64,000 nucleotides of DNA from an uncultured Candidatus Binatia bacterium (lineage in GTDB: Bacteria; Desulfobacterota; Binatia; Bin18): assembly GCA_965214605.1 (NCBI GenBank), contig OZ243961.1, positions 800,001 to 864,000 on the forward strand, given 5' to 3'. A program made the position numbers and the translations under genes. A model generated the notes under the pieces. It saw nothing but the letters and a program-made list of their open reading frames with translations, searched no databases and was not told where the DNA came from. This document shows positions 32,694 to 36,025 of the stretch, piece by piece (positions within the stretch are counted from its first letter, which is position 1; each line of letters begins with the position of its first letter).

Positions 32694-33094
32694 GAGAGGA
32701 GATCGATAAGCCGGATTCTGTTCCCCTGTGTAATGCACTGAGGCCATGGTCATTCCTCTTGGCAGCACGTTACCGTGCTGCTCTAGCGACCGAACCCGGA
32801 AGGCAGAGTGGGGCGGCTCTTGTCCGCAAACGGACCCTTCCTACTTTGGTCTTGCTCCGGGTGGGGTTTACCCAACGCCCCCGATCTCTCAGGGACTTGG
32901 TGAGCTCTTACCTCACCTTTTCACCCTTGCTGAGAGCGGCTTCCGACGTCCGTCCTGGCCCCTCTCTAGCGGTCTCTTTTCTGTGGCACTTTCCCTGCCT
33001 CACGGCCGGCCGCTGTTAGCGGCCACCCTACCCCAAGGAGTCCGGACTTTCCTCGAACCTGGCGGGCAGGTCCGCGACCATGTAATCTCCTCTC
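32694..33094 (-). ncRNA. rnpB: RNase P RNA (bacterial type A)
   Basis: Minus strand carries GAGGAAAGUCCGGACUCC, AGUGCCACAGAAA, GGUAAACCCCACCCGGAGCAAG and ACAGAAUCCGGCUUA. The termini GAGAGGAGAU and AUCUCCUCUC pair as P1. Confidence 0.97.
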
Positions 33095-33110
33095 ACACTG
33101 ACGGCCTCAG

Positions 33111-33854
33111 TCAGGCTTCCTGTTCCCCCTCGCTCGCCTGCGGCCAATAGATGATTCGCGTACAATGCGGACAGTAATAAATTTTTTCGGACTGCTGAAG
33201 TTGACTACTCTGGATCTGATTGCACAGCTGGGGGGGAAGCCGCATATGGCAGCCCTGGCATGTTCCCTGTTGAATCTGCACCACGGCAAGCCCACCGCAT
33301 TTGGTAAAGACGCGCTCATACCGACTCTGGAGTGCTGAGTCAAGAGAGCCGATCAGGACGCTGCGCTTCTCGCGTTGCTGCTGCGATTCATCTTCTAGGA
33401 CCGTTATTTGGTCATCCGTCCGCTCCGCTTCTTGCTGGTGCTGGACCTTCAGGGTTCCCAAACGGACCTGGCTCCGGGTCAGACCCTCGTTCTCCTGCTC
33501 TATCTGTTCAAGCAACCGCAGCGTGCTCTCTTCTAGCTTGCCCTTTTCTTCCCGCATCAGTTCAATCTCTCGCTGGGCGGCAAGCATTTCCCGCTCATTG
33601 CGGATACGGTTCAGGCGTACCCGCTTTTCCTTGATTTTGTCTTCTTCTAGTTTGAGCCGCCCTTCGATGTCCTGATGCTGAGCCTCAAGCTCCTGTAGCT
33701 TTTGGTGTTGGGCTTCCGCCTCCTGCTCCGTTTGCTCCATCTCCGAGCTAATAGCGGTCACATGCTGACGTAACTCTTGCAGAAGCTGTTCTTTTCGATA
33801 AAGCTCTTGGTCAAGCTTCTGAAGCGCAGCCAGCACATCGATCTGTGTGGCCAA
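33111..33854 (-). CDS. Coiled-coil protein with C4-type zinc ribbon (DUF164/CdsZ-like)
   Basis: LQKLD N-terminus, long coiled coil, CQGCHMRLPPQ...CPHCTRIIY; TTG start after AAAGGAGG; conventional position beside rnpB. Confidence 0.9.
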   Translation of the reverse strand: MATQIDVLAALQKLDQELYRKEQLLQELRQHVTAISSEMEQTEQEAEAQHQKLQELEAQHQDIEGRLKLEEDKIKEKRVRLNRIRNEREMLAAQREIELMREEKGKLEESTLRLLEQIEQENEGLTRSQVRLGTLKVQHQQEAERTDDQITVLEDESQQQREKRSVLIGSLDSALQSRYERVFTKCGGLAVVQIQQGTCQGCHMRLPPQLCNQIQSSQLQQSEKIYYCPHCTRIIYWPQASEGEQEA

Positions 33855-33918
33855 CAGATACCTCCTTTCGCTTTTGTCTTGCGGTGTCGAACGGGTCGAG
33901 AGCGAAGAGTCCAACGTA

Positions 33919-33992
33919 TGGGCCCACCAGGACTCGAACCTGGGACCAGCCGGTTATGAGCCGGCCGCTCTGACCAACTGAGCTATGGGCCC
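33919..33992 (-). tRNA. tRNA-Ile2 (CAT anticodon, lysidine-modified type)
   Basis: GGGCCCATAGCTCAGTTGGTCAGAGCGGCCGGCTCATAACCGGCTGGTCCCAGGTTCGAGTCCTGGTGGGCCCA forms a cloverleaf with a paired G1:C72, so it is not fMet. The GGGCCCA acceptor is typical of Ile2. CCA is not encoded. Confidence 0.93.
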
Positions 33993-34130
33993 CCCTGACA
34001 CGGACTGCACATTCTCACTCCCGAAATTTCCGAGGAGAGACACTATGGGGGCCCTGACGCGGACTGCACACCTCCGACCGCCGCCGCCGTGATCCGGCAC
34101 TCTCTGAAGCCCCCTGACACGGACTGCACA
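33993..34130 (-). repeat. Three 19-bp direct repeats separated by unique 40- and 41-bp spacers in the tRNA 5' leader
   Basis: CCCTGAC(A/G)CGGACTGCACA at 33993-34011, 34052-34070 and 34112-34130; one mismatch in the middle copy; periods 59 and 60. Confidence 0.92.
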
Positions 34131-34219
34131 CTGAACTCTGTCTGCGCTCCTCCATATCATACGCCTAGGACTATGCCTACTACTCGCCCTCGTTCACGTC
34201 GTGTTTCTCCAGATCTTTC

Positions 34220-36025
34220 TTATCCCAGCTGTTGTAACTGCTGGAGGCTACGGCGGACAGTCTCTTCATCGCCCCTCAGTTCGGCTTCCCGGAGCTGTTG
34301 CTGGAGCCGTCCGCGGGCAGATTTGCGCCGGGTGGTTTGCAGACGCCGAACACAATCGGCGAACAACTGTTCCCGCTGATCGGTTTCCTCGTCGGGCTGG
34401 ACATCGGCCCGGCTCACCCGAGCGGCCAGTCCCTCCAGCTCTTGGGGGAGTTTGTCCAGCATCGTCCCGATATCAATCTGGTCGTGTTCTTGCCATACTG
34501 CGACAATGTCTGCGGCCAGGGCCTGCCAGTGTTGAAAAGTACCAACAACACCCTCACCGGCGGCCCGCAGGGCGAGCTGACGATCGATGAGCATCAAATA
34601 CAGCAACTCCGTCTCCACCGCAGCCTGGGGAGAGAGAACGGACGGACGACGAGACCGGCGCTGGGTTTCTTGAGGCAGTGGGGGGCGACGCGATGCGGTT
34701 TGGGACGGATTCGGGCCCACTGCCGAGCGCCGAAGTTCCTCTTCGTTCACTCCAAAATGTTGCGCGATCTGCGTCAGCAGCGCCCCTCGGAGCATCGCAT
34801 CGTTCGGTTTCAACTCGGAGAGCGCAGCCTGTGCGGCCTGAGCCCGTTGAAAAGCCGACGCCCCGGGAGGGAGGGAGTGACGAAGCAAATAGAAATCCTG
34901 AAGAGACTCGGCCCGATCAATCAGGTCATCTAGCGCAGCCCGTCCGTGTTTGCGGACGAAGGAATCGGGATCCTCGCCCTCGGGCAGAAAAATACCGCGG
35001 CCGTTCACTTCGGCTTCCAGACACAGAGGATAGGCCCGGGTTGCCGCCCGTCGACCAGCCTCATCGCCGTCAAAAAAGAGGGAGACCTCACGGGTAAAGC
35101 GACGCACCTGCCTGAGCTGATTAACGGTCAGGGCCGTTCCTAAAACGGCAACCGTCTCACTATGGCCGTGCTGGGCCAGAGCTAAAAGGTCGATATAGCC
35201 CTCAACAATCAGGGCGCGTTCGCAGCTTTTGATGGCAGTCTTAGCTTGGGCCAAGCCGTATACCAGCGTCCCCTTTTTATACACCGCAGACTCCGACGAA
35301 TTGATGTATTTGGGCAAGGGGCGGGACCGACGATGCGGCGCCGAGCCCTGCCTCGCCTGCTCAGCCTGGGGTAACAGCCGTCCGCCAAAGCCGACCGGCT
35401 GGCCGACCACATCGGTAATGGGAAATATCAGACGGTGGCGAAATCTGTCATAATAGCCTCCCCTCTGCTGCTTCCCAATGAGCCCCAACCGCACGGCATG
35501 GCTCAGGTCGGCCTGTTGCTTGGTCAAAAAGCGGACCAGACCATCCCAGCCGGGCGGGGCAAAGCCCAGCCGGAACTGTGCGACCACATCGGGTCGGAGT
35601 CCGCGTTGGGCCAAGTATCGACGGGCCTCGCCCCCGATAGGGCTGGCGAGGCAGCGCTGAAAATAGCTACTGGCCAGTTCGTTGAGGCGGTACAGACGGA
35701 CGCGTTCCTGGGCCTGAGGGTCATGACTCGCTGGCAGGACTACGCCAGCCTGTTTGGCCAGCCGGCGCACGGCTTCCGGAAACGTGAGCCCCTCAATTTT
35801 AGAGACAAAGGTGAACACACTCCCACTGACCTGGCAGCCAAAACAGTGAAAGAAGCCGCGCTCCTCGTGGACGCTAAAGGACGGGGTCTTCTCGGCATGA
35901 AAGGGACACAGACCCGTATAGTTCCGGCCTGATTTGCTCAGGGCGACATAGCCCGATACGACGTCAACAATACTGAGACGAGCGCGGATCTCGGCTAGAG
36001 TAGCCTCGGGAATCCGGTCTGCCAT
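34220..36025 (-). CDS. dnaG: DNA primase
   Basis: CPFHAEKTPSF...HCFGC Zn finger, DRFRHRLIFPI, PKYINS, VEGYID, TOPRIM FDGDEAG and DPD. Confidence 0.97.
   Translation of the reverse strand: MADRIPEATLAEIRARLSIVDVVSGYVALSKSGRNYTGLCPFHAEKTPSFSVHEERGFFHCFGCQVSGSVFTFVSKIEGLTFPEAVRRLAKQAGVVLPASHDPQAQERVRLYRLNELASSYFQRCLASPIGGEARRYLAQRGLRPDVVAQFRLGFAPPGWDGLVRFLTKQQADLSHAVRLGLIGKQQRGGYYDRFRHRLIFPITDVVGQPVGFGGRLLPQAEQARQGSAPHRRSRPLPKYINSSESAVYKKGTLVYGLAQAKTAIKSCERALIVEGYIDLLALAQHGHSETVAVLGTALTVNQLRQVRRFTREVSLFFDGDEAGRRAATRAYPLCLEAEVNGRGIFLPEGEDPDSFVRKHGRAALDDLIDRAESLQDFYLLRHSLPPGASAFQRAQAAQAALSELKPNDAMLRGALLTQIAQHFGVNEEELRRSAVGPNPSQTASRRPPLPQETQRRSRRPSVLSPQAAVETELLYLMLIDRQLALRAAGEGVVGTFQHWQALAADIVAVWQEHDQIDIGTMLDKLPQELEGLAARVSRADVQPDEETDQREQLFADCVRRLQTTRRKSARGRLQQQLREAELRGDEETVRRSLQQLQQLG

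Follow-up and report, generated by a model that had tools for sequence, protein, structure and literature searches.

A repeated leader before a tRNA-Ile2 gene in a Candidatus Binatia genome: a candidate scar of off-target CRISPR integration

Introduction

Why should the leader of one tRNA gene carry three nearly identical repeats, separated by two unrelated pieces of DNA of almost equal length, as a very small CRISPR array would? The question is raised by a stretch of 64,000 nucleotides of an uncultured Candidatus Binatia bacterium (contig OZ243961.1, positions 800,001 to 864,000; the whole stretch is hereafter called the window), in which a 19-nt sequence recurs three times on the minus strand immediately before a gene for a tRNA with anticodon CAU. 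A first-pass annotation, made from the letters alone, had described this element as a CRISPR-like mini-array, and had offered as explanations a leader processed into small RNAs, an array for binding or decoying RNA-binding proteins, or the relics of tandem duplication or element integration. The last of these has turned out to be the nearest, in the form of an integration of two short pieces of DNA with duplication of the target, and not as a simple decayed tandem duplication. The explanation that we favour, with moderate confidence, is that the array is a two-spacer off-target ('neo-CRISPR') integration scar, produced by the CRISPR adaptation enzyme of the organism itself, most likely a type I-E Cas1-Cas2.

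Anatomy of the repeated leader

The 19-mer TGTGCAGTCCG(T/C)GTCAGGG is present on the minus strand at 34130-34112, 34070-34052 and 34011-33993, three times as had been annotated, with start-to-start spacings of 60 and 59 and pairwise agreements of 19/19, 18/19 and 18/19; the identity of copies 1 and 3 extends over 21 nt. When up to three mismatches are allowed, the window contains exactly three copies, against a chance expectation of 0.06, and none of 100 shuffled sequences reached this number. A genome-wide search of the 4.37-Mb genome (G000) found no fourth copy, and a repeated leader precedes only one of the 47 tRNAs of this genome. The third copy ends at base -1 of the tRNA, whose base 1 is 33992 (33919-33992 according to both ARAGORN and Rfam), which bears out the statement that the last repeat abuts directly on the tRNA.

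Counted from the edges of the 19-mer, the two spacers measure 41 nt (34071-34111) and 40 nt (34012-34051), and they are unique, as had been reported. The ten bases that follow each 19-mer echo the start of the tRNA: they are the tRNA itself in copy 3 (GGGCCCATAG), -CCCCCATAG in copy 2, where CCCATAG corresponds to tRNA bases 4-10 with the offset unchanged, and GGCTTCAGAG in copy 1. This echo, initially noticed at the spacer nearest to the tRNA, is present at the start of both spacers (6/10 and 7/10). Judged from this alignment, the true repeat is about 29 nt long (29, 28 and 29 nt in the three copies) and is composed of 19 leader bases that are exact, followed by tRNA bases 1-10 in degenerate form, the inserts proper being 31 and 31 nt (Table 1). 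The copies differ at 1 of 38 positions within the 19-mer and at 7 of 20 in the next ten nucleotides (Fisher p=0.0016).

The array is real DNA and not an assembly artefact, because contigs from two different studies reproduce it. Four sequencing runs were compared as Logan contigs of metagenome-like samples, among which X1 or X5 may be the source sample; the contig of run X1 covers 33919-34500 with 0 differences and that of run X5, which belongs to another study, covers 33600-34117 with 1 difference. No copy-number variants of the array were seen in the contigs of these four runs. The RNA runs listed contained 0.05-0.06 of the sampled words.

A first way of accounting for this anatomy is a decayed tandem triplication, in which a 60-nt unit made of 19 nt of leader and tRNA bases 1-41 would have been doubled twice, the tRNA parts decaying afterwards while selection or conversion kept the leader part. 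The unit length agrees (60 = 19 + 41), both spacers start with the echo, in register with tRNA 1-41 they agree with it at 17/41 and 16/41 positions (p about 0.03 each), and spacer 1 aligns locally to tRNA 19-54 (p 0.008-0.019). The in-register signal is confined, however, to the first ten nucleotides, and from positions 11 to 41 the spacers match the tRNA at 11/31 and 9/31, which is chance level (p 0.20 and 0.35). Nor do the spacers resemble each other: they match in 13 of 41 aligned columns (p 0.18; p 0.18-0.7 over the comparisons made), so that they are not alignable as the remains of a tandem duplication, a test that the first-pass annotation had itself suggested. Since decay would be even and would leave the spacers alike, a decayed tandem duplication fails; moreover, it requires strong purifying selection on three leader copies that are found in no relative. 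In the leader, neither a pseudo-tRNA nor any other family was detected by Rfam over 33880-34230, even with E values of up to 10 admitted. Triplication is, taking all this into account, an improbable origin.

What is needed instead is an insertion accompanied by target duplication, because the repeats are near-identical, whereas the inserts show no relation to one another, to the tRNA past its base 10 or to the rest of the genome. Neither insert has another copy in its own genome. A search with Tandem Repeats Finder over 33500-34600 returned nothing, because the units share only 19-29 of their 60 nt.

Comparison with related genomes

The set of relatives comprised 40 genomes, and the genus is represented by eight species genomes including G000, hence seven congeners. 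The tRNA was found in 40/40 relatives. In all seven congeners the locus (dnaG, promoter, tRNA, rnpB) has a single short leader without any array. In BLAST, query positions 36-98 match G001, G003, G004 and G005 at 87-91% in the stretch immediately (about 10 nt) upstream of the tRNA of these genomes, and the alignments of the congeners show a short leader between the promoter region and the tRNA. In the nearest congener, G007, which is approximately 83% identical in the flanks, the leader ends in ...GCAGTTCAGGCCGTGTCA followed by GGGCCC (also given as ...CCGTGTCA followed by GGGCCC), and the 3' half of the 19-mer is present once. The expansion of about 120 nt next to the tRNA is seen only in G000 among the genomes of the genus, and the array is absent from 7/7 congeners and from all 29 relatives' loci examined, so that a repeated leader occurs in 1/30 loci.

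From these comparisons the array is a young, lineage-specific insertion of about 120 nt and not a conserved RNA device, because the 19-mer occurs in the genome at this locus only and the congeners do not have the array. Thus, as would be expected of an integration scar, in close relatives the insert is absent and the target is single. Derivation of the inserts from the ancestral leader was considered and rejected, since the 31-nt inserts match it at 9/31 and 6/31 positions when compared by hand.

The same comparison bears on a functional RNA device of whatever origin, which could be a source of small RNAs, a decoy or sponge for a protein or small RNA binding the 19-mer, or a folding switch gating the maturation of the tRNA. 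Spacers of tRNA precursors acting as sponges of small RNAs are known in E. coli. The junctions of the present leader are complementary to one another: GGGCCCCC, located at junction 2, and GGGGGCCC, where copy 3 meets the tRNA, are reverse complements, and junctions 1 and 2 pair through GGGGGC and GCCCCC, respectively. The equilibrium probability of the acceptor stem is about 1.0 with copy 3 alone or with copy 3 plus insert 2, 0.47 with the full leader, and 0-0.01 for transcripts beginning at copy 2, insert 1 or copy 1; as these values depend strongly on the 5' end chosen, they were not treated as evidence of regulation. Against such a device stand the absence of the array in every congener, the lack in the genome of any complement of the 19-mer longer than 12 nt, and the minimum free energy structure of the full-length transcript, which keeps the acceptor stem and a helix between leader and trailer. 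Furthermore, structure never exceeds that of shuffled sequence. The stem-loops annotated in the spacers can indeed form, but they are no more stable than those of shuffles (z +0.11 and -0.73); the whole leader is no more stable either (z +0.50), and unit-level folding gave no structure common to both repeat-insert units. Without conservation, exceptional structure or a copy of the repeat elsewhere, neither a source of small RNAs nor a decoy array is upheld; a device of this kind has a low probability, and the array is probably without regulatory function.

CRISPR systems of the genome and a genome-wide scan for scars

Taking into account that an integration scar calls for an integrase, the CRISPR systems of the genome are relevant. 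Its CRISPR arrays number at least five, and there are several cas1 genes. Of eight Cas1 matches none lies inside the window, in agreement with the annotated lack of cas genes there. An intact type I-E module, with Cse1, CasE and Cas1, adjoins a 97-repeat array (G000:C1:2301764-2307654), whose repeat is a palindromic hairpin and in which 94/96 units consist of a 28-nt repeat and a 33-nt spacer. The other systems have a 36-nt repeat with a 30-nt spacer, or 37-nt repeats with spacers of about 36-38 and about 42 nt.

The main contig C1 (4.31 of 4.37 Mb), with the known arrays masked, was then scanned for unique inserts enclosed by direct repeats of 18 nt or more. Spacing 61 gave seven loci, whose duplications measure 27-29 bp, and spacing 60 gave five, against nine for all spacings from 40 to 59 together. 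Further sharp peaks of duplication plus insert appear at 66, 73 and 77-78, which are geometries of the genome's own CRISPR systems. In all, at least eight scars of I-E type exist besides the tRNA locus, seven of them with a period of 61 (Table 1), and five of these eight inserts are 32-33-nt copies, 97-100% identical, of sequence located elsewhere in the same genome, their sources lying at C1 positions 2307693 (the I-E leader itself), 974074, 1691840, 1215783 and 915880. Around six self-protospacers, a protospacer adjacent motif was sought in both orientations, and no flanking triplet recurred consistently.

The congeners allow some of these sites to be seen before they were filled. At C1:4089123, the 28-mer of congener G006 is single and without insert, in a short intergenic gap, and is therefore a clean empty site. 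At C1:91695 about 56 nt within a gene are missing from the congeners, although the alignment is fuzzy. From the alignment, the gene that holds this scar looks like one for a membrane protein; it is conserved, without interruption, in G006 and G007, and in G000 it may have been disrupted or remodelled. The comparison was uninformative for C1:500128, where no homologous region was found in any of the seven congeners, for C1:1399850, where the flanks alone are conserved in them, and for C1:125255, where a distal repeat alone is.

The eight duplicated targets differ from one another. Their in-register identity to the I-E repeat is 10-17/28, compared with a background of 7.44 +/- 2.26, and CC at positions 8-9 and GG at positions 20-21 are kept in 6-8 of the 8 sites. 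Events of this kind, a repeat-length duplication around an insert of spacer length, are what would be expected of off-target integration by Cas1-Cas2.

Several exact duplications, each enclosing a unique insert, fit the rulers of the other systems: C1:4250365 (36+30); C1:1967743, 2103855 and 3068860 (37-38 + 35-36); and C1:2197075 and 3676203 (37 + 40-41). Three copies are present at C1:1706198-1706330, another of these duplications. They are possible off-target events of those other integrases.

A second mini-array was observed at C1:711165-711385 (locus L057, 2166-2386), with three copies of the 29-nt repeat GCTGCCCCCCCCCTGCACGTAGCGCGCAC and spacers of 33 and 32 nt. A fourth, native copy of this repeat lies in the 3' end of a polysaccharide deacetylase gene, from which the repeat is derived. 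The array is absent in five congeners. Its oldest unit is a longer duplication (64-68 nt), which gave the protein a new C-terminus. End-to-end alignment of its repeat with that of the tRNA locus gave p=0.005 for copy 3, 0.016 for copy 1 and 0.68 for copy 2. The making of this mini-array by the I-E system is not shown, because its repeat aligns to the I-E repeat with p=0.38 and its score in the target matrix described below has p=0.14-0.46. A motif, CCCCC(TG/GT)A?CACG, is common to both mini-arrays and the I-E repeat; having been defined after the sequences were seen, it carries little weight.

Two further loci were noted. At C1:1983998 a 20-bp duplication surrounds a 40-nt insert (spacing 60), of which 36 nt are a copy of C1:1598376-1598411, with short microhomologies at both junctions; this may be a templated insertion by another route. 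At C1:612900-613530 about 14 copies of a 43-44-nt repeat stand head to tail in tandem and do not form a repeat-spacer array. They adjoin a divergent cas1-like open reading frame (612052-612705), a weak Cas1 match of 48.5 bits.

Origin of the array at the tRNA locus

The intact I-E cas genes, the 97-repeat array and the eight scars provide, in the same genome, a matching adaptation module and other products of its presumed activity. A matrix built from the eight other off-target sites scores the repeat of the tRNA locus with p=0.022 for copy 3, 0.07 for copy 1 and 0.039 for copy 2, where the register is set by the left end of the repeat itself (a left-justified 28-mer compared with random genomic 28-mers) and copy 2 is shifted by a 1-nt deletion. 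These scores lie within the range of the eight training sites, whose leave-one-out p values are 0.005-0.13. By plain in-register identity, 10/28 positions agree with the I-E repeat, the background being 7.4. A period of 60 is also known among the other events, with 27+33 at C1:2692053 and 29/30+31 at C1:4135912, and the inserts of the tRNA locus, 31 nt long, become 33 nt if the duplication is taken as 27 bp. The tRNA locus would have been hit twice, and likewise the 711-kb mini-array.

According to this proposal, the target would have been a pseudo-repeat made up of the 19 nt with which the tRNA-Ile2 leader ends and of about 8-10 nt from the start of the tRNA. Two successive integrations would each have added about 31-33 nt of unrelated DNA, staggered cuts followed by gap filling duplicating the target of about 27-29 bp. 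The copy on the tRNA side would always regenerate an intact 5' end of the tRNA, older copies being shifted upstream, and the tRNA gene would thus survive because the copy next to its body rebuilds that end. Transcription would proceed from the unchanged promoter, giving a leader of about 150 nt instead of about 35 nt, in which the 5' bases could still pair with the 3' trailer, the inserts would fold locally and copy 3 would remain largely single-stranded beside the tRNA. Cleavage by RNase P at 33992/33993, the junction of copy 3 and the tRNA, would then remove the long leader.

A number of observations weigh against an I-E integration. The periods are 60 and 59, and not 61 as in 7/8 events of I-E type. 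Exact agreement among the three copies is limited to 19-21 nt; towards the tRNA, the 8-10 nt that follow differ at 4 and 3 positions, whereas the other scars have 0-1 mismatch over 27-29 bp. The decayed ends require an extra assumption: a decoy acceptor strand may have been selected against, or there may have been slippage in the G/C run. The former is conceivable because an upstream GGGCCCA could compete for the 3' strand of the acceptor. The p values of the matrix are modest and come from eight sites, and the 711-kb repeat itself scores poorly in it. Local alignment of the repeat to the I-E repeat gives p 0.085-0.60 (about 0.09-0.10 for copies 1 and 3). Congeners G007 and G005 have large I-E arrays (225 and 91 repeats) and yet no array at tRNA-Ile2. 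Finally, neither insert has a convincing protospacer in its own genome, the phage collection or IMG/VR, where the first-pass annotation had suggested that phage and host matches be sought: spacer 1 matches the phage collection only at E >= 2 and spacer 2 does not match it; in IMG/VR the core 20-mer of insert 1 has 0 matches, and insert 2 has one 21-nt exact match in a contig, which is chance level.

The degenerate tRNA-side ends suit imprecise repair better than the chemistry of an integrase, and here a second route has to be weighed: a serial duplication independent of Cas proteins, in which template switching or break repair would have doubled the leader/tRNA junction twice, with about 31 nt of slippage or fold-back filler each time. 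Insert 1, rich in GGC triplets, and insert 2, an imperfect palindrome, are typical products of slippage or fold-back; the mini-array at C1:711165 began as a 64-68-nt duplication, off the I-E ruler; and the event at C1:1983998 (20 bp + 40 nt) shows junction microhomologies. This route leaves unexplained the equal lengths of the inserts (31 and 31), a period that departs from the I-E ruler by no more than 1-2 nt, and the sharp peaks of the genome at CRISPR geometries (61; 66, 73 and 77-78). We regard it as unlikely, albeit deserving more attention than the triplication.

The opposite extreme, a working mini-CRISPR array, orphan or acting in trans, whose CRISPR RNAs would be used by one of the effector complexes of the genome, has in its favour the repeat-spacer-repeat layout and the wealth of arrays and cas1 genes mentioned above. 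The part of the CRISPR-like description that stands is that of near-identical repeats and unrelated spacers of equal length; the working array does not. The repeat, of 19-29 nt, has no stem-loop and is transcribed towards the tRNA; its local alignment to the four CRISPR repeat families of the genome is not significant (p 0.085-0.99); no Cas1 match exists in the window; and the phage collection yielded no spacer match better than the one given. The repeat is unique to the locus, and its exact 19-mer has 5 + 5 single matches in public genomes and metagenomes, in unrelated contexts, a number near the approximately 9 expected by arithmetic from the 596 billion bases of the genome collection. A functioning array is thus very improbable, and from its sequence the element is read as having no CRISPR function, because there is no Cas6e-type hairpin in the repeat.

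The tRNA gene, its promoter and its neighbourhood

On the minus strand, the gene order is the end of dnaG, a promoter-like region, a leader of about 25 nt, the three repeat copies, the tRNA, a zinc-ribbon gene and rnpB (Table 1). The sequence of the tRNA is intact, and that of the congeners is identical or nearly so. The genome has three CAT tRNAs. In the one behind the array, C4-G69 and C5-G68 are pairs of the acceptor stem (GGGCCCA); the second resembles an elongator tRNA-Met, and the third is initiator-like, with a C1-A72 mismatch. A tilS gene is present as a pair with the elongator-like tRNA(CAT), about 1 kb apart (G000:C1:1149929-1150486 and 1151518-1151593); it is thus this tRNA, and not tRNA-Ile2, that adjoins tilS. 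The antisense of the tRNA (33918-33992, plus strand) matches the Rfam family RF04354, Plastid-ycf2 5'UTR, with 42.4 bits, which does not reach the gathering score of 65.7; an overlap of the model with plastid trnI-CAU is the presumed reason for the match. The annotation as a tRNA-Ile2 of the lysidine type is accepted because of the CAU anticodon, the non-initiator character, the acceptor pairs (which we take, from work on E. coli, to be identity determinants of TilS), the presence of TilS in the genome and this antisense match.

The TATGAT box was found where annotated (34156-34161). A scan of 33000-34400 for the sigma-70 consensus gave 0 promoters, and the putative promoter status of 34133-34195 follows from its conservation and from this -10-like box. 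A second promoter inside the repeat units was sought by eye and rejected.

The start of the leader is complementary to the 3' trailer (10 + 5 bp), forming a stalk that brackets the pre-tRNA and that can also be drawn in G001, G003, G004, G005 and G007. The beginning of the leader pairs with the trailer in six congeners. In the 10-bp helix 96.5% of cells are paired, against 23-46% when one strand is slid, and one pair varies between GC, AU and GU, a compensatory change within the genus. The array sits within the loop closed by this helix.

The order tRNA-Ile2(CAU), CT398-like zinc-ribbon protein and rnpB is kept across several families of the class, in 18/20 relatives' loci. Although rnpB lies downstream on the minus strand, as annotated, its proximity is unrelated to the array, because this synteny is old. 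The upstream gene is dnaG or, in some relatives, rpoD, a setting reminiscent of the macromolecular-synthesis operon neighbourhood of ileX in E. coli.

Table 1. Positions of the array, of the neighbouring features in the window and of the I-E-type scars in the main contig
Feature	Position	Strand	Remarks
Repeat copy 1, 29 nt	34102..34130	-	19-mer 34112-34130 plus echo GGCTTCAGAG 34102-34111, matching tRNA bases 1-10 at 6/10
Insert 1, 31 nt	34071..34101	-	3' part of the 41-nt spacer; GGC-triplet-rich; hairpin z +0.11
Repeat copy 2, 28 nt	34043..34070	-	19-mer with one T>C (34052-34070) plus echo CCCCCATAG (34043-34051)
Insert 2, 31 nt	34012..34042	-	3' part of the 40-nt spacer; imperfect palindrome; hairpin z -0.73
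Repeat copy 3, 29 nt	33983..34011	-	19-mer 33993-34011 plus tRNA bases 1-10 (33983-33992); continuous with the tRNA body
Spacing-61 scars	G000:C1:91695, 125255, 500128, 1399850, 2694922, 3921609, 4089123		exact 27-29-bp duplication around a unique 32-34-nt insert
Spacing-60 scar	G000:C1:2692053		27+33
dnaG	34220-36025	-	primase domains
Conserved putative promoter region	34133..34195	-	contains TATGAT at 34161-34156
Ancestral 5' part of leader	34131..34149	-	conserved in congeners; CAGAGTTCAG (34140-34131) and GAGCG (34149-34145), able to pair with the 3' trailer
tRNA, anticodon CAU, 74 nt	33919..33992	-	ARAGORN; Rfam tRNA 73.7 bits
3' trailer strand of helix	33900..33914	-	TTGGACTCTT 33914-33905, CGCTC 33904-33900
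CT398-like zinc-ribbon coiled-coil gene	33854-33111	-	
rnpB	33093-32691	-	Rfam 286 bits

Significance

The wider pattern of scars in the genome is a more valuable result than the tRNA locus itself. It suggests, as a tentative proposal to which we give somewhat less credence than to the off-target origin of the tRNA-locus array, a genome-wide record of stray CRISPR adaptation: dozens of fixed insertions whose repeat-length target duplications fit the ruler of each system (28+33, 36+30, 37+36 and 37+40), many of them taken from the organism's own DNA, some inside genes, some at sites that were struck repeatedly and so gave new proto-arrays, and one on the 5' end of the single-copy, essential tRNA-Ile2. 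If this is true, Cas1-Cas2 would act as an insertional mutagen whose effect is measurable and would give rise to new CRISPR arrays in nature, and the decay of the decoy acceptor ends would reflect selection cleaning up after integration.

One natural genome combines comparisons of empty and filled sites, self-derived spacers that can be located and a target motif in register, together with two repeatedly struck sites, of which one overlaps an essential tRNA gene. Three questions become open to direct test: what adaptation costs through insertional mutagenesis, genes included, which sequence rules govern the choice of targets in vivo, and how the birth of an array begins. It also carries a warning for annotation, since 'mini-CRISPRs' with odd repeats beside tRNAs or genes may be integration scars and not RNA devices.

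Comparison with known systems

Off-target spacer integration giving rise to neo-CRISPR loci was reportedly obtained by Nivala, Shipman and Church in 2018 in E. coli overexpressing the type I-E Cas1-Cas2. The resemblance to the present scars lies in the insertion of short DNA outside the array, in the duplication of a repeat-like target of repeat length, in the building of a small array by repeated strikes and in the I-E system of the host. The scars described here are, in contrast, natural ones in a wild genome without overexpression, and the site at the tRNA locus spans the 5' end of an essential tRNA and its leader, with a geometry of 60/59 instead of 61 and one decayed target end.

Off-target ('non-canonical') integration by Cas1-Cas2, with overexpression in E. 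coli, is described in the relevant parts of PMC11788318, bioRxiv 10.1101/148544 and PMC6698737, and the natural evidence is called there 'circumstantial ... in two other species'. In the part of PMC6698737 devoted to it, the Cas1-Cas2 of Pyrococcus furiosus integrates off target in vitro, at non-CRISPR sites that share features of the repeat. Similarly, the off-target sites of the present genome share repeat features in register, positions 8, 9, 20 and 21 (CC...GG) being kept in 6-8 of 8. The subtype and the organism are different, and the P. furiosus reactions took place in vitro on plasmids, whereas the events found here are fixed in a genome, with filled-in duplications.

The I-E array of the same genome shares with the array of the tRNA locus a period of about 60-61, unrelated spacers and growth by duplication of the repeat. 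It differs in its 28-nt palindromic hairpin repeat and exact 33-nt spacers, while the repeat of the tRNA locus consists of 19 exact plus 10 degenerate nucleotides without a hairpin, and its spacers are of 31 (or 40/41) nt; besides, the array at the tRNA locus has neither an adjacent CRISPR leader nor cas genes and reads into a tRNA.

Repeats beside a tRNA gene have a further precedent in the tyrT gene of E. coli, which is flanked by 178-bp repeat units, each carrying the last 19 bp of the tRNA. In both cases tandem units beside a tRNA gene bear a piece of its end. The tyrT units are whole-unit tandem duplications, located downstream and alike over their full length; at the tRNA-Ile2 locus just 19-29 nt are repeated, and the intervening DNA is unrelated.

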